DNA from: Candidatus Hydrogenedentales bacterium
GTDB lineage: Bacteria; Hydrogenedentota; Hydrogenedentia; Hydrogenedentales; JAEUWI01
Assembly (NCBI GenBank): GCA_942492815.1
Contig: OW818658.1
Location: 3,862,059 to 3,926,058, forward strand
Length of the DNA: 64,000 bases
Reading direction: 5' to 3'
How positions within the stretch are numbered: position 1 is the first letter of the stretch; the number at the start of each line of letters is the position of its first letter. Positions 10,614 through 27,199 of the stretch are shown here, piece by piece. A program made the translations under genes and the position numbers. Under the pieces are notes generated by a model. That model ran no database searches, had not been told where the DNA came from, and saw only the letters and a list, made by a program, of their open reading frames with translations.

Positions 10614-11630
10614 ATGGTGCGTACAATTCGAAGAGCCGGTTGCGGGCTGTTGATTGCCCTTTGCTGCTGTCAGTGTGGCCGGGCTCCAGAGCCCGGTAAG
10701 ACAGCAGCCACCCTGCCTGAGGACGCACCCGCCGCAGCAGCACACACCGAACCCATTCTCCCCATTCCCGCGCCCCCCGATGTCGCGCCGGAGAAGCTGG
10801 AGCTGGGCAAGCAGCTTTTCCACGAGACGGCGCTTTCGGGCGCGTCGCGCAAGGTGAGTTGCGCCACGTGCCATGATCTGGAAAAGGGCGGCACGACGGG
10901 CAAGCCGCCCGCCGTGACCGGCGAGGCCGAGCCTTATGATATCCCTACGGTATTTAACGCCGCCCACCAGTTTGCTCATTTCTGGAATGGCCGCGCCCAA
11001 AGCCTGGAAGCGGTGATACAGGCGTCGATTCGGGCGGAGAATGTCATGGACGGATCGTGGGACGAGATCATTCCTGCGCTCGCGGAAAACCCGGACTACG
11101 TCGCCCGCTTTGAGCGAGTTTACCCGGAAGCTGGCCTTACGGAGTCGTCCGTTGAGGACGCCCTGACGAGTTACGTGCGCAGTCTGTCCACACCCAATTC
11201 CGCCTTTGACCGCTGGCTCGCGGGGGGCGAATTGACTGAGGAAGCCCGAGAAGGCTATGAACGCTTCAAGGAACTGGGGTGCGTCCGGTGCCATCAGGGC
11301 GCCGGGGTCGGCGGCAATCTCTTTGCGTCGTTCGGCTCGTATCTTGCAGCCCGGGAGCGCGTCAGCAACAGCGATCTCGGCCGATTCAATGTGACGAATG
11401 ACGAATCCCACCGCTATCAGTTTAAAGTTCCCGGTCTCCGCAATGTCGTGCTGACGGCACCCTATTTTCATGACGGTTCCGCCGCAAAATTGGAGGATGC
11501 GGTCCGCGCGATGGCCCAACATCAACTCGGGAAGACTCTTTCCGATGAAGAGGTGCGGTCGCTCGTTTCATTTCTGGAAACGTTGACCGGAAGCGCGCTC
11601 CTCGGTGCGACTGGGGGGACCCAGCCATGA
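10614..11630 (+). CDS. di-heme cytochrome c peroxidase (CCP/MauG family)
   Basis: Two heme-binding CxxCH motifs (CATCH and CVRCH) and the conserved PGLRNVVLTAPYFHDGS block. N-terminal signal/lipoprotein-like sequence. Confidence 0.85.
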   Translation: MVRTIRRAGCGLLIALCCCQCGRAPEPGKTAATLPEDAPAAAAHTEPILPIPAPPDVAPEKLELGKQLFHETALSGASRKVSCATCHDLEKGGTTGKPPAVTGEAEPYDIPTVFNAAHQFAHFWNGRAQSLEAVIQASIRAENVMDGSWDEIIPALAENPDYVARFERVYPEAGLTESSVEDALTSYVRSLSTPNSAFDRWLAGGELTEEAREGYERFKELGCVRCHQGAGVGGNLFASFGSYLAARERVSNSDLGRFNVTNDESHRYQFKVPGLRNVVLTAPYFHDGSAAKLEDAVRAMAQHQLGKTLSDEEVRSLVSFLETLTGSALLGATGGTQP

Positions 11631-12943
11631 AACGTCGACTCAGTCTTTATTACGGCGCGCTCCTCGTACTCCTGGGACTGACGCTGGGGGTCGTGGGCTT
11701 TGGCCTGGCGACCACGGCCCGGCCCTCGGGCCACGCCTACGAACAGGCTCTCCTCGATTTTGTCGATGCCGAACGAATCATGGACGCTGAACTGAGAAAG
11801 CTTGAGATTGGCGCGGGGAATCACTTCGACGGGCTCAAGGAAGCGGTACTCGCGGTGCGACGGGCGGAAGTGCCGTTGAGCACGATCCCCCGCTATCTCA
11901 GTTCCGCGGCCGCCTTCAACGAAGCCCGGCTGCAACTTGCCGTCATGGTTAACGAGCGGCTTGCACTGGTGGAGGAATTCAAGACCGGCCTCTCCGCCCT
12001 GCAGGTCAGTCTGGACGCGCTTCCAGAGAAGATCGAGGCGGCGCAACAGGAGCGTGTCGATGCGGGAAACTCCGGCGATATGCTGCTGGCGCGCGCGGCG
12101 GGGAATCTGGCGCGGCTGGTCAGTCACCCCGGTGACACAGTGGACGCTCAGCTTTCCAGCGAACTTTCCGCCCTCGCGGCGGAAGCGGGCGAGGAAGTGA
12201 ACGCGTCGTTCAAGCCCGGTCTGGCGGCCTTCGTGAAGCAGGGCGAAACGATTCGCGCGCGAAATAAAGCCCTGGATGAAATACTTGTCAAGCTGGCGGC
12301 GGCGCCCCTCTCCGGACATGCGGTCGATCTGGTCGAACTTTACGAGGCGGTCGAACTCAAGCACCGACAGCGCACGGCCTATATCCTGGGCGGTGTAACG
12401 GTCGTGCTGGTGCTGGGCCTGGCGGCCCTCTTCTTTGCCGGGCTGCGTCGCGCTCAGGTGCGGTTGGACAGTGCTCTGGCGGATCAGGCCGCTCTAAAGA
12501 GCGCGCTCAAAGAGGCGAAGGCACAGTCTGAAACGGTCAAGCGTGGTGAACGAGAACAATCGGCGCTGCTGGCGGAAGAACGGCATAACGCCCTTGTCCT
12601 CCATGCGTTTGACCTGATGGCCATTCTCTCGCGCCAGGAAAATTACATCCACGTGTCCCCCGCCTGTGAGGCCTTTTTCGGGCTGACCGATAAGGAGATG
12701 ATCGGCAAGAGCGTTTACGAGGGCATCCATGCCGACGATATCATCAAAGTTCAGGATTATCTGGCCCGCGCACAACGCGAGCTTCCCACAGAGCAGACGA
12801 TCCAGTACCGCGTGATGGACGCCTTCGGCAAGTGGCACCTCGTGGAGACCTTTGCTTCGAACCAGGCGAGTAATCCGGCGGTCCGGGGCATGGTGCTCAA
12901 CACGCGGCGTCTGGGCATGGCGCCCGATTCGAAGGCGCGGTGA
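11627..12943 (+). CDS. membrane sensor protein: two transmembrane helices flanking a periplasmic domain, then a cytoplasmic PAS domain; no kinase or other output domain
   Basis: TM1 LSLYYGALLVLLGLTLGVVGF and TM2 AYILGGVTVVLVLGLAALFFAGL. C-terminal PAS-like region (LHAFDLMAILSRQENYIHVSPACEAFFGLTDKEMIGKSVYEGIHADD...). Its ATG overlaps the CCP stop (ATGA), implying translational coupling. Confidence 0.65.
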   Translation: MKRRLSLYYGALLVLLGLTLGVVGFGLATTARPSGHAYEQALLDFVDAERIMDAELRKLEIGAGNHFDGLKEAVLAVRRAEVPLSTIPRYLSSAAAFNEARLQLAVMVNERLALVEEFKTGLSALQVSLDALPEKIEAAQQERVDAGNSGDMLLARAAGNLARLVSHPGDTVDAQLSSELSALAAEAGEEVNASFKPGLAAFVKQGETIRARNKALDEILVKLAAAPLSGHAVDLVELYEAVELKHRQRTAYILGGVTVVLVLGLAALFFAGLRRAQVRLDSALADQAALKSALKEAKAQSETVKRGEREQSALLAEERHNALVLHAFDLMAILSRQENYIHVSPACEAFFGLTDKEMIGKSVYEGIHADDIIKVQDYLARAQRELPTEQTIQYRVMDAFGKWHLVETFASNQASNPAVRGMVLNTRRLGMAPDSKAR

Positions 12944-12974: not shown

Positions 12975-13643
12975 ATGAGTAATTCGGGCGATCCGTCCAA
13001 GCCCGTGGGCACGGGCAGCTATGTGGTCAAAGAAGACGACTGCATGTCGTCCATCGCCGAGGCCACGGGCCATTTCTGGCAGACCATCTGGGATGATCCG
13101 GCCAATGCAACGCTGAAGGAGATCAGGAAGGATCCGAACGTGCTGCTGCCCGGCGACAAGGTGACGGTCAAGCCGATCACGAAGAAGACGGTATCGAAGG
13201 CGACGAACGCGAGTTACCGCTTCCGCCGGAAGGGCGTCCCCGCCAAGCTGCATCTGCGACTCTTGAAGTATGGCGAGCCCCGGGCGAACGAGTCGTACCG
13301 TGTGGATATCGACGGCAAGCTCTCGAAGGGCGTGACCGACGGCCAGGGCTACGTGGACCTCTACATTCCGTGCAACGCGAAGAAGGGAAAGCTCTGGGTG
13401 GGCCCCCCCGAAGACGAGAAGATGTACACGCTCCAGCTCGGCCACACCCTGCCCGTGGCGACCGTCAAGGGTGTCAAGCAGCGCCTCCGAAATATTGGCA
13501 TGTATGGCGGGCTCATCGACGACGAACTAACCCTGGCCTACAAGGATGCCGTGCGCGCATTTCAGAAAGAAAACGCGCTCCCGGAAACGGGCGAGACCGA
13601 CGAAGCGACGCGCCAAAAACTGGTTGAAGTCCACCGTTCTTAA
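12975..13643 (+). CDS. LysM-like (phage tail protein X-like) N-terminal domain plus C-terminal peptidoglycan-binding (PG_binding_1-like) domain protein
   Basis: N-terminus YVVKEDDCMSSIAEATGHFWQTIWDDPANATLKEIRKDPNVLLPGDKVTV is a LysM/gpX-like fold. C-terminus LRNIGMYGGLIDDELTLAYKDAVRAFQKENALPETGETDEATRQKL matches the peptidoglycan-binding helical repeat. Shine-Dalgarno aggaagg lies 8 nt upstream of the ATG at 12975. Confidence 0.7.
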   Translation: MSNSGDPSKPVGTGSYVVKEDDCMSSIAEATGHFWQTIWDDPANATLKEIRKDPNVLLPGDKVTVKPITKKTVSKATNASYRFRRKGVPAKLHLRLLKYGEPRANESYRVDIDGKLSKGVTDGQGYVDLYIPCNAKKGKLWVGPPEDEKMYTLQLGHTLPVATVKGVKQRLRNIGMYGGLIDDELTLAYKDAVRAFQKENALPETGETDEATRQKLVEVHRS

Positions 13644-13654
13644 CGAATTTTTAA

Positions 13655-13800
13655 CCACGAATGGACTTAGCGCAGCCGCTGGCCGCAACCGAAAGAGTTG
13701 AACCGCAAATTTACGCAAATTCTCGCAAATTGAATGGGAAGAGAACGAAAGAGATTTGGACCGCGAATGAACGCGAATGGACGCGAATATCCTGTTACTC
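13655..13800. repeat. small repetitive element, intact paralog of the sequence interrupted by the ISL3 insertion at 2.8/4.2 kb
   Basis: ggccgcaaccgaaagagttgaaccgcaaatttacgcaaattctcgcaaattgaatgggaagagaacgaaagagatttggaccgcgaatgaacgcgaat aligns to 2790-2842 plus 4180-4225 once one TSD copy and the IS are removed. Confidence 0.5.
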
Positions 13801-13859
13801 TGGACGAACACGCATGGGCCATCCTTCAGCGTATTGAACGCGTTCGCTTCGTAAATTGC

Positions 13860-14110
13860 TTCATGGCATGTGGTTATAAGCATATTGGAAAAATAAACTT
13901 GCCAAAAGACTAGATACTGACGGATAGTAGTACGAAACTACATAAATAAACAAATCGGTATTTACCTTATGATATCGGCTACTTCGTAAGCCCGCAGCTT
14001 GGATTTCAAGAAACAAGAAGGGGGGTAGACTTCAAAGAGCTCAAAGCGCTCCAACGTGGACTTATTATCGTTCTATTTGAGTCCTTTGAGGTTAAATGTT
14101 TTTCTTGTTT
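13860..14110. other. AT-rich island (far below the local GC content) in the intergenic region upstream of the amidohydrolase-fold gene
   Basis: Sequence such as tggttataagcatattggaaaaataaacttgccaaaagactagatactgacggatagtagtacgaaactacataaataaacaaatcgg is strikingly AT-rich in a ~65% GC context. Likely promoter/regulatory or foreign-origin DNA. Confidence 0.5.
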
Positions 14111-14241
14111 TCCTATTCGTGTGAATTCGTATCCATTCGTGGTCTGTTCTTTTGTTGTAGCCAACATGCACCGTAACTTTCCCGAAAGTGCCGAAAAAGT
14201 ATCCTCAAACCAGATGAACCAAAAAGGCAGAGAGACTCACG

Positions 14242-16380
14242 ATGGATAGCGGCCCCAACAGCCCGAACACCGACACCGGAACGCCCCCGTCAACACTCGA
14301 GGAAGCCGAGGAACTCGTCAATTTGACGGTTCCCGAAGATCCCGAAGAGCTTTTTGAAGAGATACTCGTCGATGGAACGCTGGACATCGATACTGTCCGG
14401 CGCGATGACAGTACCGTCGATCCGACCGGCGAGGGCACAACCCAATCCGTGGCGCGGGCGACGAGCGACGGAAGCAAGACGGCGTCCACGTTGGACGAGC
14501 CGTTGCCGAAGCTCCCTGTTGTGGATATCCACTGCCACATTCACGGCGTGAGTCTTTCCAAGACGAAGTCGGCCTTGAAGGACTTCAAGCAGCACGGCCT
14601 GTTTCACGGCAACGATCTGAAGACGCCGAAAAAACGCGAAGCATTCCAGAAATCGCTGAACGAGTATTACGAGAAGAAGGAAGAAAAATACAAGTCGCGG
14701 CTCAATCCGGCGCTGCAACTGGGGCACTGGAATTTCCTCGACGACCCGTGGGTCGCCAAGAAGATCATCACCAGCACGCAGAGCTTTCAGGACGCCACGG
14801 AGCGGCAGGACATCGGCAACCCGATTATCATCACGCCGATGTTGCTGGATTTCGGCTACACGCCCCTGGGCACCTCGGTCGCCAGCAAGGCGGCCAAGGT
14901 CAAGGGCTCGGGCGACAGCATGAACGAGACGAAGGCGCGCCAGGAGGAACTGGCGGATACGGGGATCTATTACTTCTCCAAATCGGCAAAGACGCAGCGC
15001 GACCACCGTTTCTTCACGCGGGACGATTCCATGTTCCGCCATCAGGTCGAGATTCTCCATATGATGGCGACGCTCTGGCCCGGCCAGATCATGCCCTTCT
15101 GCCCCTATGACCCGCGGCGGCCCAATTGTCTTGACGTGGTGAAGGCGGCCATGGATACGCAGGCCTATGTGGGCGTTAAGCTCTATGCTCGCTGCGGGTG
15201 GATGCCCGCGAACAACGCGGCGCTTCACGGCACGGCGGTCGGCAAGATCCTTGATGATCGGCTGGATGAGTTATACGCCTACGTGACGGCCAACGACATT
15301 CCGATTCTTAACCACACAAGCCCAACGGGGCATCCGCCGGAGGGTGCCCTGGTATTCCCCTGGCGCATGACGGCGGAGGCCACCGCCGATGATCGCGCGC
15401 CCGCGTCATCCGCCGCGCCTTCGAGTTATCCCCCGAGCAACTGGACCCAGCCGGATATGTTCGTAAAGGGCCGATCAAAGAAAGAGCGGTCCCTGGAGAA
15501 GATGAACTTTGAGCTGACGGGCTTTGGCTATTACTGCCTCTACGATCAGTTGACCACCTCGCCCTATAGTTGGGAGCCCGTACTGAAGAAATATCCCAAG
15601 CTCCGTCTCTGCTTCGCCCACTTCGGTTCCAAGCTGGGCGCCTATGTCCGCTACAACTTGAAGACCGGCGCCGCCGTGGCGGATTGCGACCTGCTGCTGC
15701 AAAAGAACCCCATGATATCCGGGGCCACAGGAGATCGCAGTTTCAAAGATTATTTCATGATGGGCGCAATCCGGAATCGCTACGACAAGAAAATAAAAGA
15801 CGACTTTGCGCAGGAGTCGGCGGAGAAATTGCTCGCGCCCGCGACGGAGTGGGACGACTGGCTGAACAAGTGGGCCGCGGCCTATCCCGATGATTGGAGC
15901 ACGCGGATCACGAAGCTGGTCACGGACTACGAGAATGTGTATACCGACATCTCGTTTATCACGGGGAACAGCTCGTCATTCAACGATATCGTGGGGCCGA
16001 TCTTTCAGGATGCGCTCGAACAGCGGAAGGGCGCGGGCAGACTCTTTGACAAGTGTATGATCGGCACGGACTGGTACATGACGGAAATGGCAAGCCTCAG
16101 TCCCGGCGGCTTCTGGCGGCTGGTGGAGAAGGCCTGCAAGATGGACAAAGCAACCTTCAGCCAGCTTCCCGAGCCGGAACGCGTCAAGCGCGCCAAGGTA
16201 TGGGATCTGTGGGCGACGAAGAATGCCCTCCGGTACTTGAACGTGAAGCCCCGTCTCGGCGGCACCGGCATGGACAAGCTGGTGAATGCCTACGGCTGCA
16301 CGGTTGACAAATTACCCCCCTGGTGGAAGACGCTGGAGAAATTCTACGACAAGCCCGAGAAGATCGAGCCGCCGAAGTGA
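14242..16380 (+). CDS. amidohydrolase-2 (TIM-barrel metal-dependent hydrolase) superfamily protein with about 100-aa acidic disordered N-terminal extension
   Basis: N-terminal metal ligands VVDIHCHIHG (HxH), later LNHTSP, CFAHFG (H-x-G) and MIGTDWYM (Asp of the GxDxP block). Acidic low-complexity N-terminus (EEAEELVNLTVPEDPEELFEEILVDG...). No signal peptide. Convergent with the T6SS operon. Confidence 0.7.
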   Translation: MDSGPNSPNTDTGTPPSTLEEAEELVNLTVPEDPEELFEEILVDGTLDIDTVRRDDSTVDPTGEGTTQSVARATSDGSKTASTLDEPLPKLPVVDIHCHIHGVSLSKTKSALKDFKQHGLFHGNDLKTPKKREAFQKSLNEYYEKKEEKYKSRLNPALQLGHWNFLDDPWVAKKIITSTQSFQDATERQDIGNPIIITPMLLDFGYTPLGTSVASKAAKVKGSGDSMNETKARQEELADTGIYYFSKSAKTQRDHRFFTRDDSMFRHQVEILHMMATLWPGQIMPFCPYDPRRPNCLDVVKAAMDTQAYVGVKLYARCGWMPANNAALHGTAVGKILDDRLDELYAYVTANDIPILNHTSPTGHPPEGALVFPWRMTAEATADDRAPASSAAPSSYPPSNWTQPDMFVKGRSKKERSLEKMNFELTGFGYYCLYDQLTTSPYSWEPVLKKYPKLRLCFAHFGSKLGAYVRYNLKTGAAVADCDLLLQKNPMISGATGDRSFKDYFMMGAIRNRYDKKIKDDFAQESAEKLLAPATEWDDWLNKWAAAYPDDWSTRITKLVTDYENVYTDISFITGNSSSFNDIVGPIFQDALEQRKGAGRLFDKCMIGTDWYMTEMASLSPGGFWRLVEKACKMDKATFSQLPEPERVKRAKVWDLWATKNALRYLNVKPRLGGTGMDKLVNAYGCTVDKLPPWWKTLEKFYDKPEKIEPPK

Positions 16381-16547
16381 CAAGGGACGGGACCGTCTTG
16401 GATGGGTGGTGCCTCAGGATGGTGAACGAGGCCACGGGACCTTTACGATCACTCCGGCATAGAAAACACACTACGCGTTCGGGACCGTCCCGCGTTTAAA
16501 AAGCGTGGGACAGTCCTGTATTCAGGCCCCCTCCATACGTAGCTTAC

Positions 16548-16720
16548 ACCCTTGGTTTCTGGTGGCACTTCCTTATTCAGAATACGCTTTGTCGGACAGT
16601 CCCATTGAAATGCGTGGGACAGTCCTATGCTCAGACCCTCATCATCCGTGGATTGCCCCCCTTATTTCTGATGGCCCTTGTTATTCAGCGTATACGTTGT
16701 CGGACAGTCCCATCGGTTAT
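16548..16720. repeat. imperfect tandem duplication (about 115-bp unit) plus dispersed GGGACAGTCC motifs between convergent genes
   Basis: ttattcagaatacgctttgtcggacagtcccat and ttattcagcgtatacgttgtcggacagtcccat about 115 bp apart. gcgtgggacagtcct occurs at 16502 and 16611. gggaccgtc at 16386 and 16481. Confidence 0.5.
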
Positions 16721-17055
16721 ATTCTCGGTGTCGTCTGGACGGTGGATTGGGCCGTGATCTGACCGAGATCAGCGAGGGACTCGACGGGTTTCCAGGGGTC
16801 TTCCGTGTGCGTGGTGGCGCGCTGGTCGCGGACGTGGAGCTTGCCCGCGTCGTCCACCATGAAGAGTAAATCTTCGATTCGGATGGTCTTGTCGGCGCCG
16901 CAGAGGCCAATGGAGGCCGCCTCGAAGGTGTCCAGTTCCTCGTCCTTCACACCGAATCGCTCGTGAAGTATCTGGCGCGTCGTGCGGATTTTCTCCGCCA
17001 GGATTTCCTCCTGACGGGCCTCAAAGGCCTCCCTGGCCCGCTGTCTTAGGCCCAT
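16717..17055 (-). CDS. hypothetical protein (112 aa), last gene of the T6SS minus-strand operon
   Basis: ATG at 17055-17053 with Shine-Dalgarno AAAGGAATC 8 nt upstream. Protein MGLRQRAREAFEARQEEILAEKIRTTRQILHERFGVKDEELDTFEAASIGLCGADK... has no recognised domain. The longer ORF 16717..17304 is an in-frame upstream extension without support. Confidence 0.4.
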   Translation of the reverse strand: MGLRQRAREAFEARQEEILAEKIRTTRQILHERFGVKDEELDTFEAASIGLCGADKTIRIEDLLFMVDDAGKLHVRDQRATTHTEDPWKPVESLADLGQITAQSTVQTTPRI

Positions 17056-17080: not shown

Positions 17081-18226
17081 TTATGGCTTGAGCGTGGTTG
17101 TGCTTTGGGGACGGCCAAAGAGGGGCGGCGCGGAAACACCGGGCTCAACCTCTCGGGGCGCGCGCCGGGCGGGCCCGTAGTCGCGATGGAAAGGTTCCGA
17201 AGCCACGTTTGGATTCCCGATCTGATCGGTGGCGACCCCGGCTGGAATGGACAGGGTAACGGGGCCCCGGTCCTGGCGCATGTCGATGATGAAGGTCTTG
17301 CCATCCGGCTCTGCGGAGAAATTGATCATCTTCCCATAGGCCACGGCGACATCGCCCCGCTCGAATCCCTGCACGGGCTCGCTGAACTCCGCGCGCACGC
17401 GAATGAGGCGGGCATTGCTTGCGCCGGGTGTCTCGAAGGAAGTGAGGGCGACTTCGGGGCCCGCGCTGTCCACCACAATCGAAAAGGCGGGCGAGGCTTC
17501 GTTGCCATTGCCGACGGCGTCGTACGCCACGTCTTCCGGGATCTGGAAAGCGATGGTGCCGTCCTGTGCGGGGGTAACGGAGAAGAGATAGATGGCGTCA
17601 CCATCGGCGCCCGCCTTGCGCTTGAGCTCGGCGTTTTCCATGGAAAGACTTTCGTCCTTCAACCCGAAGACGGGCTCGGAGAAGCCGAGCGCGATTTCCA
17701 TGGTGGCGTTGTTAACCACGCCAGCGGCCTCGCTGTGGACGAGACAGGTCGGGCGGGAACCATCGAAGACGACAACGCCGTCTTCGGCTGTGGAGGGGAC
17801 ATTGAGATTACCAAAGAGGTCGGCGCACAGGCCATCGGGAACGCTGACCTCGATGGCGCCGTCGTGCTCGGCGGAGAGGATGGCGACGCGATAGGTGTCG
17901 CGTGCGCCCTCGACGGTGTAGCGCAGCCCGGAGGCTGTGCCCGACATCACAATACCCGGCGCATTGGCCCCGGTGGGAAAATCCACCACGGGCTCGTCGA
18001 TCTTGATGTCGAAGTAGATGGGAAACTGATTAGTCGGATCGGGTTGGTCCGGAGCCTGCCGCACAACAATCTTCGGGCGGTCGTACTGGTTCAGAATCGC
18101 CGGGTTAGAGAGACGTCGATCATCCTTCTTTCGTTCCGAGCGCGTCTCGACGACGGTTACCGGTCCGGTCGGCCCCGGCTTACTCGTCGCTCCTGCGGGG
18201 GATCCAGGCCCGGATCGGTTTTTTTT
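17081..18226 (-). CDS. Ig-like repeat protein encoded in the -1 frame of tssM; probable C-terminal extension of TssM via frameshift/slippage at a poly-A(10) run (or homopolymer sequencing error)
   Basis: Frame is open from the TAA at 18227-18229 (inside the A10 run 18219-18228) down to the stop at 17081. It contains only a GTG (18064) with no ATG and a weak Shine-Dalgarno. Protein has three repeats of an Ig-like motif (VSVPDGLCADLFGNLNVPS / IAFQIPEDVAYDAVGNGNEAS / LSIPAGVATDQIGNPNVAS). Confidence 0.4.
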   Translation of the reverse strand, partial: KKNRSGPGSPAGATSKPGPTGPVTVVETRSERKKDDRRLSNPAILNQYDRPKIVVRQAPDQPDPTNQFPIYFDIKIDEPVVDFPTGANAPGIVMSGTASGLRYTVEGARDTYRVAILSAEHDGAIEVSVPDGLCADLFGNLNVPSTAEDGVVVFDGSRPTCLVHSEAAGVVNNATMEIALGFSEPVFGLKDESLSMENAELKRKAGADGDAIYLFSVTPAQDGTIAFQIPEDVAYDAVGNGNEASPAFSIVVDSAGPEVALTSFETPGASNARLIRVRAEFSEPVQGFERGDVAVAYGKMINFSAEPDGKTFIIDMRQDRGPVTLSIPAGVATDQIGNPNVASEPFHRDYGPARRAPREVEPGVSAPPLFGRPQSTTTLKP

Positions 18227-21200
18227 TTAATCTTCTTGCCGCCATAGCCCGGTCCCGTGCTCTCGGTGTAGGGTTCGGCGACCGCATCGCGACTCGCGGC
18301 CGGGGCCGAGGGCGCACCGATAATCGGAGGCTCGGGCGCGGCACCGTTCACGGGTTCGCGGGGCGTGGTAAAGGTCACTTCGGTGGTATAGAGCGGCCGC
18401 TCCGGTGCGGGCACGATCGCAGGCGGGCGCTTGATGGGCTCGGTGCGTACCGCGGGCATGGCGGGCTGCGGCGCGGGGGCCGGCGCGACGGGGGCCGGGG
18501 CAGGCGCGGGGAGCGCCTGCGGGAGGGGGCGCGTCATGACGGGCTGGGACTGGGGTGCCGGCGCGATTTCGCCGGGAAGGGTGTAGTCTGGTGCGGTGAC
18601 CTCGACGGCGGGCGCGTGGGCAATGTCCTGTTCGGGTTGCGGCGCGGCAGGCATTTCAGCCGGTACGGCTTCGGTCACCTCTCCCCCGCGAACCGGAGTG
18701 CTTGGGTTGTCCAGGGTAAACACGCGGGGCGATTCGGCCGCAGGCTTGTAGCTGTAGGCACCGTTGGGCATGGGAGCCGATCCGGTGGAGGACGGTGCGG
18801 CGATTGGCGCAGATTCAGGCGCGGGCAACGGCGTCACTTCCGGTGCCGGGGCCGGCGCAGGCGTGGACGGATCACCCGACCCCGTAATGAGGACTTCCTT
18901 GATCTTGTCGCTGATCTGAACGGATGTGGCGTTGGTCTGTACGGGTTCAGGGATCTCCGCTTCGCGAACCAAGGGCAGCAGGGGTGCTTCGGGATTGACG
19001 AATTGTCCACCTTCGGCGTCTTCGGGGTAGGACTCGCCCAGGGAGCGAGGCATGCGGCGAAGGCTGGGCCAATTGTAGGCCGAAGGCCAGCCCTTGAGAT
19101 CGGGGATCGGCTTGTTGAACTTGAAACCGAGCCAGTAGTAATACTCGCTGTCTTTGTGCTCGGCATTGTCCACCACGCGGAAGGGCACGGCGCAGGTCAT
19201 TTTGTCCTCAAGGACCACGGAATCACCCATGTGGAGGACGACGATGGGCAGCCAATCCATCTCCAGCCCCCCCACGCCGCTCGGGCGGGCGAAGCTGTTC
19301 ACACCGGGATTAAGATCCTCGGAGGTGTAGTAGAAGTGGAGGGCGAGCTTGTTGGACACGGGGGCCAGCGGATAGGTCTTGGCCGCCTCGCCCACCACGT
19401 AGGTCGTGGGTTCGGTGTTGAAGGCTTCGCCGTTGACGCGCATGTAGCGGTAGACCCAGGGGGCCGCGCCATAGACCTTGCTGGTGGGCATGGGCTCGGG
19501 GAAGCGCGGCGGGCGCTTCTCCTGCATTTCGCGCGGCAGAATCACCAGCTCGCAGGTCAGAGGCGTGTCGCCGCCGATAAAATCCATCACGGCCACGATT
19601 TGGTCGAACCATTCGCGCTCATACTCCGTGCGAATGACCTTGTCGCCCTGGAGGCGATCAATTTCCTTGTCCACGTCGGGCCAGCCGGTTCGCTCACCCG
19701 TCATCAGGGATTCTGCCTTTTCAGGCTTGGGCTGCTGCTTGATATGGCGCACGAGTTCCACGGCTTCGTCGAATTGCTCCGGCGTCAGGGGCGGCGTGGC
19801 GGTGTCGTTGATAAGGGGGAAGCCCCGATAGCGTGTGGCCAGATTGACGAGGTAGTAGCGGGACAGGTGCTCGCCCTCGTCGGCCAACAGACGAACGGCC
19901 TGGGTACAGAGGCTGCTCCAGAAGGCGAAGTTGGCCTTGTTCACACTGTTGTCGAGGAGCGAGAGGTAACCGCTCTTGAAGGCGTCCGCCTTCATGACAA
20001 GAAGATTGTTCACCACGTCGCGGTCGATCTTCTCGATGGCCTTCCATGCGTTGAGAATACGAAGGCACTCCGCGTCGAAGTCCTCACCCAGGCCCTTGAG
20101 CTTGAGGGTGAGGTCGAGGTGGGCGTCGGTCTGGCCCGGGTGGGTGTCGGGCACAATATCCACAGCATAAAGCGCGGTCTCGTAGAGCATGCGCAGCTTA
20201 TGGTTGACGTTGTACACCTCCAGATTGTTCAGCTCGGCGTGAAATTCCTTCCACGTGGCGTACTGGACCATTTCGGTGTTCTGGTCCACCATGCGCGACC
20301 AGTAGTTCACATACTCGGTGATGTAGTTGGTGAAGACCTGGTTCTTCTCCTTGAAACTGCGCTGGAGCCGGTCGATATCGGGCAGGGCGTCTTTGCCGAG
20401 CTTTTCCTGGCCGAGAATCTCCTTCATGTGGGACCAAAGCGTCAGAAGGTCGTAGACCACTTCGGTGTTGAAGCCGTCGTCGAACTGCTGCATTTCGCCG
20501 GTGGGCGTGAGGGGGATTTCGGGCTTCTCCAACCACTGGGCCTCGACGCGTGAGGCCACAAGACGGGCGAAGTCGGAGGTGTTGACCGGGAGCGCTTCCA
20601 CAATCTCGGCTACGACTTTGAAGCGCTGCTGGCGGTAGATCAGGGCCAGCATAGCCTCGGCCGCCTCACGACCGCTGTTAAAGCTGTCGGAGTTCGTGTC
20701 GAAATCGGCGATGTTGCGCACACTCTCGTCGAAGGCCTTCTGGAGCTCTTCGAGATCGAGGAGGTAGTCGAAGGGATCGTAAACATCCTCGCCCACCACA
20801 TAGTCCGACTCCTGAAGGAAGCCATAGACGTGGTTGCGCAACTGGTAGCCGCGCATGTCCTGGAAATCTGTCTTGGCGAGAAATTCGCGGTCGGCGCGGA
20901 GCGCGTCGAAGTCGGCGAGAAACTTTTCGGCCGACTGGGCCACGAGGGCATCGGTCGAGGTCTTGTCCGCGGCGAGGCGGTTCTTCACGTCTTGAATGTG
21001 CAGGCCCGTTTCGTCCTCTTTGATGGGCACGACCTTGTCGAGCTCCTGCGTGAGGATTCGATAGTCCTGATTTACCTTGTCTTGAACTTTTTCTCGTTCG
21101 TCCTCGCAGAGCTTTTTTATATCAACTTCGCGATCGGTGAAGAGGCGAGCGATGACGTCATCCAGCGCTTTGCGCTTCACGGTGAGCTTTTCCACGTCTT

Positions 21201-23451
21201 CTCGCCATGATGCGAGGATGACATCGATCTCGTGAACACTGTTGGGGCTTCCACCTTCCTGGGCGTTCTTCCAGAGGAGGGATTCCGCGTCACGGAAATC
21301 GGTCAAGGCCGTGAGCAACGCGCGAAGGTCGGCAAAGGCCGCGCCTTCGGAGACGTAGGTGTCAATGTGCTTCTTGAACTGGGCCGTACCGCTGTCGACC
21401 GCCTCATGGAGCCGCTCTTTTGCGCCCGCCTCAAAGAAAATTCTCGGCGGCCAAGCCTGGGATGTGGGCGGGTCGTAGAGGTCTTTGACGTATTCATTGT
21501 AGAACTTGTCGTGCTCCGCGTACTGGGCTTTATCCTCGACAGCATAGGCCAGGAAATTGTTCAGCTCGACCTTGCGCCCCTGAGAGCCGAGGTCGGGGGC
21601 GAAGCCGTCCTCCGTCATGGCCTCGATGCGCAATAGTTGGCCAAGGGCCAGGGTGGCTTCGTCGCGCCAGACGGGCTCGTCCTTGATGATGCGATCCTGT
21701 GCCGCTACGGCGAGGGGCGCCACGTAGCGATACTCGAAGATGCTGCGGTAGGCATCGAGCATGTCGGTGCGGAGGCGGCGATTGACGAGATCGAAGGGCT
21801 TGAAAACCCAGGGCGTGTTGACTTCCTGAACCCAGTGGGTTTCCATGACCTCGGGCAACTTGGCCATGAGAACGCCGGAAGCGTACTCCTCGGGCAGCTT
21901 GAGTCCCGCCAGGTCCACATTGAGGTCGCCATTGTACTCATAGTCCACGCCGCTGCCGGGGGTGACGATTGCGTCGCTCTTGGCCAGCCAGGCGTTGACC
22001 ACGTTCCAGTTTTGGCGCATCTGTTCCATGTCATTGCGCCACTGGTTGGACTCCCACATCATGTAGGCAAAGAGGCACATGAGGAGGCCGAGGCAGATCA
22101 GTACGAGGCGGGCCCGGGAGCGCTTGCGCTGGTAGCGCGGATCCTGTTTCCACGTAACCAGCCCGCCCTCGCAGAAGACCTTGTCGTTCAGCATTTCCTT
22201 GAGAAAATAGCTGTCTTCGGTGTGGCGCGTTTCGGCGGCGGGCAATTCCGACAGGGGCTTCGACAGGGCTCTGGCCAGCGAGGGATCAAGCTCGGTGTCG
22301 CGCTGGATGGCCGAGGTGTAGTAGGCGCCGCGGAGGAAAAAGGTCGCGCAGTACCAGGAGTCCGGTTCGAAAATACGTTCGAGATAGGTGCCAAGCCGAC
22401 GGGCGGTCTGCTGAAAACTCCGGGGAAACTCGTAGAGGTGGTTCACCTGTACGCGGCGCTTGTAGGCCAGGCTCTTGGACTCGATGGAATATTGGAGCAG
22501 GGAATCGCGACGGTGCCGGAGGCGGTTGAACACGCCTTCCATATCGTTCCGAAACTTGTCCGGGCCGAAGGGTGTTTCCAGGGTATCGGGATTGGACCAG
22601 CCGAAGATCTGATCGCGGTTGCCACCTTCTTTCAGGTCGGAGAAGTACTCCAGAAAGCCGCAGAGGCGATCGCTCTTGGTAACCATGACGAAGACGGGCA
22701 CCTGGGTACCCAGGGCGCGATGAACGTTTTCAAAATGCTCCACGAGGCGCGCGGACTTGGTATTCACGTCCTCGTCGGAATCGGCCAGCAACGTTTCGGC
22801 GGAGATGGCGAGGATGATGCCGTTGAGCGGGCTCGCGGGACGAAAATCGGCGATGTGCTTGAGTAGGAGCTTCCACGCACGAGCCTCGGAGGCACCGCCC
22901 CGCCCAAAAAAGTGAGCGCCGGGCAGATCAAGGAGCACGGCCTTGTTGGTGATCCACCAGTCGAGGATCTGGGTGCCGCCCACGCCCTGGGTGGTGTCGG
23001 TGAGGCCTGCGGGGAAGCCGATGCCGCTGCGGCGGATGGCCTCGGACTTGCCGCAGCCTTTCTCCCCCACCACCAGATAGAGGGGCAGCTTGTAGGGATC
23101 TTTGCGGAAGCTGGCGAGATCGGCCACGCCCTTGTCGAACTTGCGGGCAAGCTCACGGCGGAATTCGTCGTCGGAGATGGAAGGGACTTCTTCTTCCGGC
23201 ATCGCTCCGTCGGTCGGGACTTCGGCGGCGGCTTTCTTCGCCCGCCAGCGCCGCCAGTTCTTCACACAAAAGTAGATGAGGCTGGCGATTGCAGCGATAA
23301 TGGCCAAAATCAAGAGGGGCTTGCGAAGCGGCTCTGGAAACCACGAGAATGCATCCGTGACCAATCCGAAAATCGCCATTACCGGGATGATCAGATATTG
23401 CCAATCCCCGATCTCTTCCATGAAGCCGTATACTTTGCTAATCGGATTCAC
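18157..23451 (-). CDS. tssM: type VI secretion system membrane subunit TssM (IcmF family)
   Basis: Two N-terminal transmembrane helices, cytoplasmic P-loop NTPase (VVGEKGCGKSE Walker A, VLLDLPG Walker B), third transmembrane helix (RLVLICLGLLMCLFAYMMW), long periplasmic IcmF-related domain, Pro/Ala-rich C-terminal region. Immediately downstream of tssL. Confidence 0.9.
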   Translation of the reverse strand: MNPISKVYGFMEEIGDWQYLIIPVMAIFGLVTDAFSWFPEPLRKPLLILAIIAAIASLIYFCVKNWRRWRAKKAAAEVPTDGAMPEEEVPSISDDEFRRELARKFDKGVADLASFRKDPYKLPLYLVVGEKGCGKSEAIRRSGIGFPAGLTDTTQGVGGTQILDWWITNKAVLLDLPGAHFFGRGGASEARAWKLLLKHIADFRPASPLNGIILAISAETLLADSDEDVNTKSARLVEHFENVHRALGTQVPVFVMVTKSDRLCGFLEYFSDLKEGGNRDQIFGWSNPDTLETPFGPDKFRNDMEGVFNRLRHRRDSLLQYSIESKSLAYKRRVQVNHLYEFPRSFQQTARRLGTYLERIFEPDSWYCATFFLRGAYYTSAIQRDTELDPSLARALSKPLSELPAAETRHTEDSYFLKEMLNDKVFCEGGLVTWKQDPRYQRKRSRARLVLICLGLLMCLFAYMMWESNQWRNDMEQMRQNWNVVNAWLAKSDAIVTPGSGVDYEYNGDLNVDLAGLKLPEEYASGVLMAKLPEVMETHWVQEVNTPWVFKPFDLVNRRLRTDMLDAYRSIFEYRYVAPLAVAAQDRIIKDEPVWRDEATLALGQLLRIEAMTEDGFAPDLGSQGRKVELNNFLAYAVEDKAQYAEHDKFYNEYVKDLYDPPTSQAWPPRIFFEAGAKERLHEAVDSGTAQFKKHIDTYVSEGAAFADLRALLTALTDFRDAESLLWKNAQEGGSPNSVHEIDVILASWREDVEKLTVKRKALDDVIARLFTDREVDIKKLCEDEREKVQDKVNQDYRILTQELDKVVPIKEDETGLHIQDVKNRLAADKTSTDALVAQSAEKFLADFDALRADREFLAKTDFQDMRGYQLRNHVYGFLQESDYVVGEDVYDPFDYLLDLEELQKAFDESVRNIADFDTNSDSFNSGREAAEAMLALIYRQQRFKVVAEIVEALPVNTSDFARLVASRVEAQWLEKPEIPLTPTGEMQQFDDGFNTEVVYDLLTLWSHMKEILGQEKLGKDALPDIDRLQRSFKEKNQVFTNYITEYVNYWSRMVDQNTEMVQYATWKEFHAELNNLEVYNVNHKLRMLYETALYAVDIVPDTHPGQTDAHLDLTLKLKGLGEDFDAECLRILNAWKAIEKIDRDVVNNLLVMKADAFKSGYLSLLDNSVNKANFAFWSSLCTQAVRLLADEGEHLSRYYLVNLATRYRGFPLINDTATPPLTPEQFDEAVELVRHIKQQPKPEKAESLMTGERTGWPDVDKEIDRLQGDKVIRTEYEREWFDQIVAVMDFIGGDTPLTCELVILPREMQEKRPPRFPEPMPTSKVYGAAPWVYRYMRVNGEAFNTEPTTYVVGEAAKTYPLAPVSNKLALHFYYTSEDLNPGVNSFARPSGVGGLEMDWLPIVVLHMGDSVVLEDKMTCAVPFRVVDNAEHKDSEYYYWLGFKFNKPIPDLKGWPSAYNWPSLRRMPRSLGESYPEDAEGGQFVNPEAPLLPLVREAEIPEPVQTNATSVQISDKIKEVLITGSGDPSTPAPAPAPEVTPLPAPESAPIAAPSSTGSAPMPNGAYSYKPAAESPRVFTLDNPSTPVRGGEVTEAVPAEMPAAPQPEQDIAHAPAVEVTAPDYTLPGEIAPAPQSQPVMTRPLPQALPAPAPAPVAPAPAPQPAMPAVRTEPIKRPPAIVPAPERPLYTTEVTFTTPREPVNGAAPEPPIIGAPSAPAASRDAVAEPYTESTGPGYGGKKIKKKTDPGLDPPQERRVSRGRPDR

Positions 23452-23457
23452 GCGCGG

Positions 23458-24183
23458 TTACTCCTGCACTACCGCGGTGGCGGGTTTGAGCATCTTGGCG
23501 GACTCGCCATCGGCGAACTCGGTAATGCTGTCCAGGGTGCGACGCAATTCTCCGGAGCTGGAGTAGTAAAGGTAAACGTTGGTCCCCAGGACGGCCAGAA
23601 TCGCCGCGATGAGGGCCCAGCGCACGTGCTTGTAGCGCTTCAAGGGGCGTGTGGCCAGGGGCTGTTCGTCGATGTGCTCGTAGGCCGTGGGGGTCAACTG
23701 CGCGGAGAGCTCGAAGCGATCGCCGAAGGCCTTCGCGTCCATGTCGCTGTGCAACTGGCGGATGTATTTCCAGTCGTCGCTGTAGCAGCCGGTAAAGCCG
23801 AGGCGGAGGCATTCGCGGAACACGGTGAGCTGCTGGAGGGCGACCTCCGTGTTCTGCGCCAGGGTCTGCTCCAGCAGATCGAAAAACTGCTCGTCACCGG
23901 CGAGTTCCTGTTCGTCGAAGGCCAGCTCCACCCATTCCTGTGCGATGTTCAGGTCGCTTTCCTTGATCATGAAATCGACATAAAAAATGAGAATCAGATT
24001 GATGGTGCGGTCGTACTGGTAGGCCAGTGAAGGGTGGGCCTCCGCCTTGATGCGGATGTCGGCGAAGATGCCGATGATCTCGCGCCGCACCTGCTCGACG
24101 TCAAACTCCGTCTTGTGCTCCGCCGCGCGGGTAAGGCAACCCACGTAGAGGAAAAGGGGCTCGGTCAGTTGCACCAGGTTCAT
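23458..24183 (-). CDS. tssL: type VI secretion system protein TssL (DotU family), C-terminal single transmembrane anchor
   Basis: DotU-like cytoplasmic domain (MNLVQLTEPLFLYVGCL...IIGIFADIRIKAE...) and one C-terminal transmembrane helix VRWALIAAILAVLGTNVYLYY. Position between tssK and tssM. Confidence 0.8.
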   Translation of the reverse strand: MNLVQLTEPLFLYVGCLTRAAEHKTEFDVEQVRREIIGIFADIRIKAEAHPSLAYQYDRTINLILIFYVDFMIKESDLNIAQEWVELAFDEQELAGDEQFFDLLEQTLAQNTEVALQQLTVFRECLRLGFTGCYSDDWKYIRQLHSDMDAKAFGDRFELSAQLTPTAYEHIDEQPLATRPLKRYKHVRWALIAAILAVLGTNVYLYYSSSGELRRTLDSITEFADGESAKMLKPATAVVQE

Positions 24184-24186
24184 GGC

Positions 24187-25563
24187 CTACTCCCCCACGT
24201 CGCTGTAGGTGGTGTAGAGGGTGAACTTGTAGTCCACGGGCTCCGACACGGTGAAGCGAATGGCCATGGTGTTTTCCACGATGATGCGGCGCCAGAGGGC
24301 GCGGTTGTCTTCGGGGTCGATACGGAAATAGTGGAGGCCGGGCTTCGCGGGGAGATCCAGGGGCACTTCGCGCTCTTCGCGCAGGGTCAGGCCGCGCACG
24401 CGCTGGTGAATGTTGCTCTTGGCCATGGCCTTGAAGCGGTCCTGTGCCTCGACGAGCTTGACGAGGGTCCGGGGATCCTCCTCGGTCTCCACCGCGAGAA
24501 AGCAGACGGAAGCTTCGGTGAGATTGACGACGGTAAGCTCGGCGACGTAGATTTCATCTTCCTCGCGGAATTCGACCCGGCGGAATTTCTGGTTGGCGAT
24601 GAGGGCGAGCAACTCGCGGATCTTGTCGCTCAACTCGCGGAACACGACAGCGGGCCGGTCGTGGTCGTAGGCGGCCACTTCCATGGCGTCGTAGCCCGGC
24701 ACGAGGGTGGCCAGTTCGCCGAGCAGGTCGCGCAACTCCAGATACATGTCAAAGGGTGTGATGCCGGGTGCCTTGATGAGGGTGGACAGGCGGCCGCTGA
24801 ACTTGTTGAGGGTCTGGAGGAAGAAAATGTGCTCAGACTGAAACTTCGACTCGCGGGAGGTCTCGCCCCGGGTACCGCCCCGGGAGACGCGGGTCACGAG
24901 ATCGCGACGGTTGGCATCGACCTGGTTCGAGAGATCGCGAACGATGGCCATCAGCGGTGCGTAGCCATGGAGCAGTAGACACGGTGGAATAAAAAGGGGA
25001 TCGAGACTCGGCAGGCCCGCGCTATCGGCGGTGGACCTGGTGATCCGCACGAGGGGGAGCACTTCCAGGCCGCCGATGTCGTCGGTGCTGAGGAGCAGGC
25101 GCGCATTGATGCGGCGCACGAGCATGGGGTGGGAATGGACCCCGGTATTCTCGTCGGGCCGCTCGATTTCATTGAGTTTGTAGATGCGGCGGCTCTTCCA
25201 GCCCTCGTTGCCCTCGGCGGTAACGACGTTTGCGCCGTTGGGGTCCCAGAGCGGAACGCCTATCATGACGGTGACGGATTCCGCGCCCGAGTCAAAGACA
25301 TTCTGCAGGTTGAGCGGGGGCACATCCGCGCTGGAGGGATAGTCGACCTCCGTTCCGCTGGGCATGACCACGCGGAGCTGCTTGAACTGGACGAGTAGAT
25401 TGCGGAGGGCGTCCTCGGAGAGTTCGGATTCGATGACGCCGTAGGGATAGGTAAAGCGCAGACGCCGCTCGGAGCGGATCTGGGTGATGATGTTCTGTTG
25501 CATCTGCTGCAGGTGATGGGGCTGGAGGAAGAGCCCTTCATGCCAATGGATATGCTGCGTCAT
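24187..25563 (-). CDS. tssK: type VI secretion system baseplate subunit TssK
   Basis: Canonical N-terminus MTQHIHWHEGLFLQPHHLQQ (TssK/VasE signature). Size 458 aa. Synteny with tssJ-like and tssL. Confidence 0.9.
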   Translation of the reverse strand: MTQHIHWHEGLFLQPHHLQQMQQNIITQIRSERRLRFTYPYGVIESELSEDALRNLLVQFKQLRVVMPSGTEVDYPSSADVPPLNLQNVFDSGAESVTVMIGVPLWDPNGANVVTAEGNEGWKSRRIYKLNEIERPDENTGVHSHPMLVRRINARLLLSTDDIGGLEVLPLVRITRSTADSAGLPSLDPLFIPPCLLLHGYAPLMAIVRDLSNQVDANRRDLVTRVSRGGTRGETSRESKFQSEHIFFLQTLNKFSGRLSTLIKAPGITPFDMYLELRDLLGELATLVPGYDAMEVAAYDHDRPAVVFRELSDKIRELLALIANQKFRRVEFREEDEIYVAELTVVNLTEASVCFLAVETEEDPRTLVKLVEAQDRFKAMAKSNIHQRVRGLTLREEREVPLDLPAKPGLHYFRIDPEDNRALWRRIIVENTMAIRFTVSEPVDYKFTLYTTYSDVGE

Positions 25564-25642
25564 CGTGGTCTTTCTCTATCCAGGAGCGGGTCGCCTTCGG
25601 GGGCGATCCGCCGGTCATCTCGCATGCCTTCCGCGCACGAAC

Positions 25643-26284
25643 TCATTGCCGCCGCTGGGTGGTTTCGCAAACCAGTCCGCTGGGTTGAATCACTACGCTC
25701 AGGGTCTTGGTACGGGGCGTGAAAAATCCATTGGGCCACGCGGTCCTGTCCAGAGGCAGGGCGAGCACCGAGCGGGTCTGCACCAGCTCCGGGCTTTCTC
25801 CCGGCTTTCGAGGCAGGTTGGCGATTACATACACGGTCCGAGCGCCCTTCCGTTTCCAGTCGTCCCACTGCTTGCTTCGGCGGGACAGCTTCTTGGGCGC
25901 GGAATCCTGATTGGTGAATCGGGAACTGAAGGCGCCGACGCCCTGGCGATAGGGGTTGTTCGTATCGAAGTACTCGCCGACCTTCATGGTTTTCATGATG
26001 CCGTCTTCGGATGCGTTCGCGGCGAAGACATCCACATCGATGGAGGGAAGTTCGCCGGTCTTTTCGTTGCGGAAGGTGTCCACGTCCATGGTCAGTTTCA
26101 CGTTGAAGGCGTCGCGCTTCTTCGAGGCGCAACCGGGCATGCCGGCCAGGACGACCAGCACGGCGAGCGACAACAGCGCGCGAGAAAGGCCCGCGCCCAG
26201 TCGGGCAAACGCGGCCCCACCGGCCCGTGTATTCGCAGCTAGAGCCCAACGATACAACACGTTCTCCTTCGCATTATTCTGCAC
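25643..26284 (-). CDS. tssJ: lipoprotein, probable T6SS TssJ-like subunit
   Basis: Lipobox LAGMPGCAS preceded by a hydrophobic h-region. Small beta-rich mature domain. Located directly upstream of tssK-tssL-tssM, as tssJ usually is. The true start is probably internal to the listed ORF, because the N-terminal 30 aa precede the signal h-region. Confidence 0.5.
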   Translation of the reverse strand: MQNNAKENVLYRWALAANTRAGGAAFARLGAGLSRALLSLAVLVVLAGMPGCASKKRDAFNVKLTMDVDTFRNEKTGELPSIDVDVFAANASEDGIMKTMKVGEYFDTNNPYRQGVGAFSSRFTNQDSAPKKLSRRSKQWDDWKRKGARTVYVIANLPRKPGESPELVQTRSVLALPLDRTAWPNGFFTPRTKTLSVVIQPSGLVCETTQRRQ

Positions 26285-27011: not shown

Positions 27012-27089
27012 GGTGTCTTAACTCCCTTTGGCGCAGGCGATGCCCGCAGCCCGAATACTACTTTTTGTTCTGGCCGACTTCGAAGGTCA

Positions 27090-27161: not shown

Positions 27162-27199
27162 CGCGCGAAGGAACTCCACTTCAAACCAACTCGAAGACA

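Follow-up and report, generated by a model that had tools for sequence, protein, structure and literature searches.

Which function is served by two genes that lie beside a type VI secretion system (T6SS) cluster in an uncultured bacterial phylum? The question is raised by a stretch of 64,000 nucleotides (nt), here called the window, from a Candidatus Hydrogenedentales bacterium of the phylum Hydrogenedentota (assembly GCA_942492815.1, contig OW818658.1, positions 3,862,059 to 3,926,058, forward strand). Gene A encodes a protein of 222 amino acids (aa) and gene B a protein of 712 aa (Table 1). An earlier note on this DNA suggested either a T6SS effector, namely a metal-dependent hydrolase toxin, or a peptidoglycan-remodelling function for insertion of the apparatus. 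Comparative genomics lends good support to the first suggestion, as does the homology that B shows to the family of TsxE, a T6SS toxin of Myxococcus. We consider it likely that A and B form a T6SS cargo cassette, in which B is an amidohydrolase toxin of the TsxE superfamily and A is its dedicated loading helper on the VgrG of the adjacent T6SS.

A and B are genuine genes and not chance open reading frames (ORFs), as judged from their homologs and conserved synteny. The position of the pair beside the T6SS cluster is kept in every Hydrogenedentota relative examined, down to 65% identity, and B has a 91% match in a Hydrogenedentes metagenome-assembled genome (MAG). The T6SS cluster is complete from tssA to tssM, and its 3' end is convergent with the pair. 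ORF, domain, and synteny checks bear out the two ORFs and their convergence with the T6SS operon as the earlier note had described them. Co-conservation with T6SS, which it had proposed to look for, was also found: the pair stands beside the T6SS in the Hydrogenedentota, and A-like and B-like genes elsewhere are linked to vgrG or PAAR genes.

Protein B matches the Amidohydro_2 family (PF04909), barely over the threshold (27.7 vs 26.4 bits). In its structural model, the predicted local distance difference test score (pLDDT) is mostly above 85 in the core and below 50 in residues 1-86. The fold matches of this model are barrels of the ACMSD, IDCase, AibH, and LigI types, at E about 1e-4 and 9-13% identity. 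The motif D95-x-H97-C98-H99, K313, H358, H460 (in AHxG), and D610 (in GTDW) is invariant in 20 homologs and makes up an intact amidohydrolase metal-binding motif. The proposed metal-site residues are placed by the model on strands beta1 (H97/H99), beta4 (K313), beta5 (H358), beta6 (H460), and beta8 (D610), and the conserved lysine leaves a binuclear metal centre possible. PF04909, the fold matches, and the invariant motif agree with the earlier assignment of B as an amidohydrolase-2 TIM barrel with a metal site. The acidic, disordered N-terminus without a signal peptide was confirmed as well: residues 1-90 have an isoelectric point (pI) of 4.05 with 22 acidic and 5 basic residues, and no hydrophobic signal-like segment was detected in B. 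This tail is kept in the Hydrogenedentota orthologs and is not found in the more distant homologs aligned. Domain and hidden Markov model (HMM) searches of B found no LysM or PAAR domain, comparison with PDB sequences gave noise only, with nothing significant, and there were zero matches in NCBIfam.

TsxE and TsxI of Myxococcus xanthus (MXAN_5572/5571) are a T6SS effector-immunity pair encoded after the orphan vgrG2 (Troselj et al. 2018, PMC5801462). TsxE has a LysM and an amidohydrolase-2 domain and is required for T6SS-dependent sibling killing; TsxI neutralises it, and the victims of TsxE round up (PMC5801462). A TsxE homolog containing PAAR was described in Nannocystis (PMC5801462). The family to which B is related was recognised as that of TsxE by its LysM and amidohydrolase-2 architecture, by a layout of vgrG, toxin gene, and 393-aa gene, and by PAAR fusions in Nannocystis, all of which match PMC5801462. 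An A-type LysM domain is fused to the N-terminus of the amidohydrolase in Humisphaera (P0183 and P0299), in Myxococcus hansupus (P0218), and in others. At the P0218 locus, the order is vgrG, the LysM-amidohydrolase gene, and the 393-aa gene, which is the published vgrG2-tsxE-tsxI layout (PMC5801462). The P0218 family comprises Myxococcus, Corallococcus, and Pyxidicoccus proteins, together with Nannocystis proteins in which PAAR is fused to the amidohydrolase. BLASTP of B against the M. hansupus homolog gave 6e-12 and 8e-8. Alignment of the B-family and TsxE-family profiles by hhalign gave a probability of 99.9% and E 1.1e-34 over 331 columns, with about 20% identity over the aligned columns. 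Furthermore, the TsxE family and B share the invariant D-x-H-x-H, K, H, H, and D residues. By these sequence criteria, B is homologous to the TsxE family.

The genomic surroundings of the B family were then compared. A profile search of 1.8 billion representative sequences yielded about 36 full-length clusters (E <1e-100) within a much larger superfamily of shorter proteins. Outside the Hydrogenedentota, the comparison covered 10 independent contexts. An A-like gene is directly upstream of the B-like gene in nine of the 10, and the tenth has a transthyretin (TTR)-like protein there (L089/L090). The locus contains vgrG or PAAR in seven (L005, L018, L023, L036, L088, L089, and L091). The gene orders include VgrG-x-PAAR-A-B (L005), VgrG-A-B-PAAR (L036), TssF-TssG-ClpV-VgrG-x-A-B (L088), and PAAR-DUF4123-x-A-B (L091). 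Linkage of B-like genes to A and to vgrG or PAAR is thus observed directly.

These contexts bear on a first alternative. B could be a housekeeping or catabolic amidohydrolase of the decarboxylase, lactonase, or hydratase type and A an unrelated wall protein, the pair belonging with the upstream operon of a di-haem cytochrome c peroxidase (CCP) and a DAHL-PAS sensor, so that proximity to the T6SS is coincidental. The top fold matches of B are indeed metabolic Amidohydro_2 enzymes (ACMSD, IDCase, and LigI-like), and the CCP, DAHL-PAS, A, and B genes share a strand, follow one another at tiny distances, and are syntenic in the Hydrogenedentota. However, these fold matches are distant, B shares ancestry with a T6SS toxin family that has been validated, and A has no export signal, which puts the cell's own wall out of its reach. 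Outside the Hydrogenedentota, B-like genes sit after A-like genes and with vgrG or PAAR, and in the contexts examined they are never beside CCP or DAHL-PAS genes. Unlike housekeeping enzymes such as ACMSD, LigI, and IDCase, B shows no close orthology, and its neighbourhoods hold vgrG, PAAR, or A-like genes and not catabolic operons. The outcome named beforehand as contrary to a T6SS role, orthology to a housekeeping enzyme with conserved non-T6SS synteny, did not materialise, and we give a housekeeping function very little credence.

Some long members of the B family have additional regions. In the B-like proteins P0016, P0017, and P0019 (~900 aa), the first barrel strand is followed by a large insertion with repeated beta-rich units of the form YC.E.ED.TGDD.I.I.VY, which B of the window lacks. 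The N-terminal extensions of P0159 and P0162 were considered as A-like and rejected, being apolipoprotein-like helical regions.

Protein A is composed of three domains. Its AlphaFold model (pLDDT 84.9) shows a small beta-alpha-alpha-alpha-beta N-terminal domain, a six-stranded sandwich, and a three-helix C-terminal domain. Against Pfam LysM, the N-terminal domain remains below threshold (E 0.22). The A-family profile matches the phage "tail tube initiator / LysM protein" 9g8s_T at E 6e-4 and, more weakly, the LysM domains of MltD, LytE, and SafA (LysM structures at E 6e-4 to 0.9). The N-terminal domain is homologous to the Pfam-positive LysM domain of the fusion protein P0183, and its HMM matches the N-termini of the amidohydrolase fusions P0183, P0218, and others. 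The middle domain has six predicted strands and fold matches to TTR-like and CarboxypepD_reg-like domains, and its HMM also matches the TTR proteins L089_310 and L090_288, which are encoded after VgrG. The C-terminal domain is a PG_binding_1 domain (PF01471, E 1e-9, 38.9 bits vs a cutoff of 23). It resembles the N-terminal domain of SleB (6tci) with a TM score of 0.75 and a root-mean-square deviation of 1.0; its fold matches are the peptidoglycan-binding domains of SleB, SltB3, and CtpB, and its sequence matches are CtpB and SleB. Whole-chain fold searches with A gave per-domain matches only (PG_binding and Ig/TTR-like), and gpX was absent from them. The earlier description of A as a phage gpX-like LysM fold with a PG_binding_1-like C-terminus therefore needs revision: PG_binding_1 stands, LysM misses the Pfam threshold and is indicated indirectly by the structure-profile hits, the homology to P0183, and the predicted secondary structure, and the gpX label is weak, with one match at E 6e-4.

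The A family is widespread. More than 400 homologs with 40-50% identity were found in many phyla, including Planctomycetota, Acidobacteriota, Thermodesulfobacteriota, and Hydrogenedentota, and members also occur in gammaproteobacterial MAGs (L017, L032, L035, and L076). A genome scan confirmed 280 relatives of A and returned 78 loci, 72 of them from outside the Hydrogenedentota, whose ORFs were searched with the T6SS proteins of the window. Among the 46 non-Hydrogenedentota loci with at least 6 kb of upstream sequence, vgrG lies within 10 kb of A in 31 and any T6SS gene in 33. In these other phyla, A is usually found just after vgrG and not by the membrane-complex genes, and the usual orders are VgrG-A-cargo and VgrG-(small TTR-like protein)-A-cargo. 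Multiple copies of A, up to three per locus, are present in 23 of the 72 loci, as in the array VgrG-A-479aa-230aa-A-591aa-A-303aa-PAAR (L002); a second copy was not found in the window. The gene 3' of each copy has the same orientation, generally starts no more than about 60 nt away, and differs greatly between loci: the 81 downstream proteins with a length of 250 aa or more fell into 32 clusters. The association of the A family with vgrG, and with cargo that varies, is in this way a direct observation, and a conserved helper that precedes polymorphic cargo by a spike gene is the signature of a T6SS adaptor or co-effector. A common N-terminal loading motif was sought among the cargo proteins downstream of A, and none extends across the clusters. 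The second-largest cargo cluster after A-like genes contains 13 proteins of 578-740 aa with an N-terminus like MPADERI.V.F.RV.V..DADTFGSGE (L019, L026, L033, L045-L048, L057, L062, L069, L075, and L086). The A helper marks this cluster as a candidate family of toxins.

This distribution bears on the peptidoglycan-remodelling suggestion of the earlier note, in a form where A would be a remodelling or anchoring accessory of the T6SS apparatus at the producer's wall, similar to TagX, MltE, or TagL, and B would be incidental. A does carry PG_binding_1 and a LysM-like domain, and in the window it is near the membrane-complex genes tssM and tssL. In contrast to wall-remodelling enzymes of the TagX and MltE type, A has binding-type domains only; no hydrophobic signal-like segment, transmembrane segment, or hydrolase catalytic domain was detected in it. 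Since it has no export signal, A cannot by itself reach the producer's cell wall. A module that is repeated up to three times in a locus, each time with a different cargo gene, fits effector loading and not structure, and in other phyla A follows vgrG and not the membrane-complex genes. Remodelling for apparatus insertion is not supported by these results, and the chance that A is such an accessory is, in our estimate, slight.

Helpers of a comparable kind have been described. LysM and PG_binding_1 are among the domains found in vgrG loci, either stand-alone or fused to toxins (Wang et al. 2023, PMC10673891). Co-immunoprecipitation showed that a stand-alone LysM protein is needed for the downstream toxin to bind VgrG (PMC10673891; Kalk_10460 of Ketobacter). 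In the same study, LysM was linked mainly to lysozyme-like, NlpD, and NlpC/P60 toxins, and PG_binding_1 genes were reported as confined to some gammaproteobacteria (PMC10673891). The A family is similar to these helpers in that an independent small gene with LysM-like and PG_binding_1 content lies between vgrG and the toxin, many toxins are served, and fusions of these domains to toxin N-termini exist as well. It differs in being a fixed three-domain protein of wider phyla with at least 32 cargo clusters. Furthermore, in the window itself A is not adjacent to vgrG, unlike the stand-alone helpers of PMC10673891.

Classical T6SS adaptors and chaperones include the DUF4123 proteins (Tap/Tec), the DUF1795 proteins (Eag), and the DUF2169 proteins. 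Like them, A is a conserved small gene before variable cargo in vgrG or PAAR islands, and the same role in spike loading is proposed for it. However, A has no sequence or domain relationship to them, with zero matches to DUF4123, DUF1795, and DUF2169 even at E up to 5, and its domains of wall-binding type suggest that it may be co-secreted. Since L091 has both DUF4123 and an A-like gene, the adaptor roles may not be redundant. C-terminal TTR-like extensions of VgrG serve as binding sites for cargo, an example being Tle1 of enteroaggregative E. coli. The middle domain of A and the 183-aa protein encoded directly after vgrG in the window are likewise TTR/CarboxypepD_reg-like sandwiches, but here the sandwich is on separate proteins, for which cargo binding would be expected by analogy. 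LysM baseplate proteins of contractile tails include P2 gpX, T4 gp53, and the LysM component of extracellular contractile injection systems. What A has in common with them is a LysM-like domain of small size that goes with a hub of the gpD/gp27 type, here VgrG. In contrast to these proteins, A is non-structural, multi-copy, and cargo-paired, and has two further domains.

The locus differs from TsxE/TsxI in several respects, although both combine an amidohydrolase-2 domain with a LysM or LysM-like module and both gene families show linkage to vgrG or PAAR. The LysM module is fused to the N-terminus of TsxE, whereas the LysM-like module here is provided in trans on A, together with the TTR-like and PG_binding_1 domains. 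B has large extra insertions and the acidic tail, and a TsxI-like gene was not found beside it. Instead of following an orphan vgrG, the A-B pair is at the tssM end of the main cluster, in the phylum Hydrogenedentota. The view that neither protein belongs to a described T6SS family has to be given up, since LysM with amidohydrolase-2 is the published architecture of TsxE (PMC5801462) and stand-alone LysM and PG_binding_1 loading helpers have also been published (PMC10673891). Both proteins are of kinds already in the literature, and the pair is probably a split version of the TsxE-like amidohydrolase effectors that are assisted by LysM, from a phylum new to this type.

In the mechanism that we propose, B would be a metal-dependent toxin that the adjacent T6SS carries on its VgrG spike without a covalent link. 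The LysM-like domain of A would dock on VgrG, by analogy with the stand-alone LysM proteins studied by co-immunoprecipitation, and the product of the vgrG gene in the window is its presumed docking partner. The TTR-like and PG_binding_1 domains, or one of them, would hold the cargo or bind the target wall. Bridging of VgrG and B by A, as well as the secretion, toxicity, and substrate of B, are expectations from this model. Since A has no export signal, its PG-binding domain would meet peptidoglycan only if A rides the spike into the target periplasm. A may accordingly be a co-secreted helper and not an adaptor that stays behind. The target of B is likely to be the cell envelope or peptidoglycan of neighbouring bacteria, by analogy with TsxE, because the victims of TsxE round up and the associated modules are of wall-binding types. 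The 183-aa TTR-like protein may be a second spike-associated, cargo-binding module; in other phyla, homologs of it are commonly encoded between vgrG and an A-like gene.

The gap between A and B had been described as a repeat- and AT-rich region of 600 bp. It spans 598 bp (13644-14241) and its GC content is low (42.6% vs about 61% around it), while its repeats are modest, consisting of 10-nt direct repeats and short CGCGAATG(A/G)A and CGCAAATT repeats. A perfect 12-nt inverted repeat, ACCACGAATGGA, lies near the ends of the insertion that fills most of the gap (13654-13665 and 14132-14143). The spacer is 23-26 nt in five relatives, including L009 and L010, whose protein A is 97-98% identical, and the left end of the insertion recurs after an unrelated gene in the metagenome contig L093. 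Since the insertion is absent from all relatives and its left end recurs elsewhere, these comparisons identify the 575 bp as a strain-specific insertion and not a native part of the A-B module. It is probably a small mobile or repeated element. An Rfam scan of 12500-18500 gave zero matches at E up to 1. Promoter and terminator scans gave sites no more frequent than in shuffled sequence and are uninformative on the transcription of B after the insertion.

Several points weigh against a cargo cassette. About 11 kb separate vgrG from the pair, which lies on the opposite strand at the cluster's far end and is apparently co-oriented with the peroxidase and DAHL-PAS sensor genes. In this strain, the insertion may have uncoupled B from the transcription or promoter of A. 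A PAAR gene was not found in the window with a single PAAR query, which a divergent PAAR could escape. More generally, 13 of the 46 A-family loci, about a quarter to a third, have no T6SS gene within 10 kb. The LysM assignment of A depends on weak profile matches, and A is likened to Kalk_10460 by description and not by sequence homology. The TsxE family was represented by its Myxococcus, Corallococcus, and Nannocystis homologs and not by MXAN_5572 itself, and the enzymatic role of the members of the B family, TsxE included, is a prediction. Finally, by simple ORF calling neither the window nor the set of loci retrieved first yielded a TsxI-like ORF, and crude gene calls found no conserved same-strand gene downstream of the B-like genes in the 10 contexts. 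A missing linked immunity gene is unusual for an antibacterial T6SS toxin.

The search for a cognate immunity gene, which the earlier note had recommended, was thus negative in the window and in the B-like loci as far as crude gene calls reach; divergent immunity genes could be missed by them. Apparent second genes after B-like genes were mostly antisense artefacts of the simple ORF caller. The 112-aa gene that is convergent with B was considered as its immunity gene and rejected. It is restricted to the Hydrogenedentota and has no export signal, and in L007, where a transposase gene parts it from B, it remains next to the T6SS operon.

A itself could instead be the immunity protein or antitoxin of B in the producer, encoded upstream. 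A always adjoins its partner gene, the search downstream of B-like genes yielded no immunity gene, and some T6SS helpers also stabilise or mask toxins. Immunity proteins co-vary with their toxins, but A is conserved across phyla (45-50% identity) while its partners form 32 unrelated clusters. Moreover, Myxococcus and Humisphaera encode an A-type LysM domain and the toxin as one fusion protein, and the Myxococcus locus keeps a separate downstream gene at the tsxI position (PMC5801462). An immunity function of A is quite improbable.

The same negative search would be explained if B were true T6SS cargo with a target other than bacterial peptidoglycan. No immunity gene would be required for a substrate, eukaryotic or other, that the producer does not have, and none of the 10 contexts has a conserved one beside the B-like gene. 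Enzymes of this class have very diverse substrates, both small and polymeric, and the acidic tail on the Hydrogenedentota proteins is lineage-specific. However, the homolog TsxE is lethal to sibling bacteria, has to be countered by an immunity protein, and makes cells round up (PMC5801462). The helper modules are of wall-binding types, and a divergent immunity gene may have escaped the gene calls. We consider such a target unlikely, though less so than the other alternatives, and retain the cargo cassette, probably directed at the envelope of neighbouring bacteria.

Table 1. Features of the A-B locus and of the adjacent T6SS cluster, in window coordinates.
Feature	Position	Strand	Basis or content
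Di-haem cytochrome c peroxidase and DAHL-PAS sensor genes, upstream of A	10614..12943	+	
Gene A, 222 aa	12975..13643	+	ORF call, homologs, conserved synteny
A, N-terminal LysM-like domain, aa ~12-68	13008..13178	+	Family-profile match, fusion homology, predicted secondary structure
A, middle all-beta domain, aa ~78-160, TTR/CarboxypepD_reg-like sandwich	13206..13454	+	
A, C-terminal PG_binding_1 domain, aa 164-216	13464..13622	+	
Non-coding low-GC (42.6%) insertion between A and B, 575 bp	13649..14223	.	
Gene B, 712 aa	14242..16380	+	ORF call, homologs, conserved synteny
B, acidic disordered N-terminal tail, aa 1-90	14242..14511	+	pI 4.05, pLDDT
B, (beta/alpha)8 amidohydrolase core with insertions	14512..16311	+	Invariant columns, model strands, fold matches
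REP-like palindromes (GGGACCGTCCC, GGGACAGTCC) and two-copy ~108-nt tandem repeat	16481..16713	.	In the spacer separating the stop codons of B and of the 112-aa gene
112-aa conserved gene, final gene of the T6SS operon, convergent with B	16717..17055	-	
Big_12 Ig-like protein, downstream of tssM	17081..18064	-	Domain match
T6SS core cluster	18157..37411	-	tssM, tssL, tssK, two unknown genes, vgrG, tssG, tssF, tssE, hcp, tssC, tssB, tssA
tssM	18157-23451	-	
183-aa stand-alone TTR/CarboxypepD_reg-like protein, directly after vgrG	26460..27011	-	
vgrG	27200..29302	-	Phage_GPD, Phage_base_V, Gp5_trimer_C domains
tssA end of cluster	37411	-	
ClpV-like ATPase	53930-56512		

The neighbours of the pair are listed in Table 1. 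Upstream, the peroxidase, DAHL-PAS, and A genes share a strand and either overlap or lie about 30 nt apart, and this order is syntenic in all Hydrogenedentota relatives. No output domain was detected in the DAHL-PAS sensor. A and B may be co-transcribed with these genes or regulated by them. Between tssM and B lie the Big_12 gene and the 112-aa gene, and homologs of the latter are confined to Hydrogenedentota loci among the loci examined. The copies of the ~108-nt tandem repeat after B are 75-85% identical, and in the relative L007 (91% identical) a Y1 transposase gene of the IS200/RAYT type is found at the position of the REP-like repeats.

Other genes of the window were also noted. A 229-aa gene (25560-26249, minus strand) lies between the TTR-like gene and tssK; it has no Pfam match and is kept in the Hydrogenedentota relative L001. 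A giant adhesin-type protein of 4199 aa with cadherin-like, Big_9, DUF11, Ig-like, and EF-hand domains is encoded divergently from tssA (37613-50212, plus strand). At 6185-10189 (minus strand), a 1334-aa protein has many PKD repeats and a lipoprotein-like N-terminus. It adjoins a PDZ/CarboxypepD_reg protein, and both are syntenic in relatives.

A wider proposal can be made for the A family. The three-domain protein would be a major, uncharted T6SS effector-loading platform outside the Proteobacteria, co-injected and tethering its cargo to the target peptidoglycan. It would mark dozens of uncharacterised toxin families, of which the B-type amidohydrolases would be one, without linked immunity since their substrate is absent or protected in the producer. 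We advance this tentatively, and regard it as doubtful in its full form. For the cargo cassette itself, the consequence is that a class of T6SS toxin known from one genetic study in Myxococcus is now extended to an uncultured phylum and several others. One type of amidohydrolase appears with three modes of loading, namely a fused LysM, a fused PAAR, and a separate LysM-type helper. The A family also provides a practical marker, as A-like genes in non-proteobacterial genomes point to many unannotated candidate toxins.

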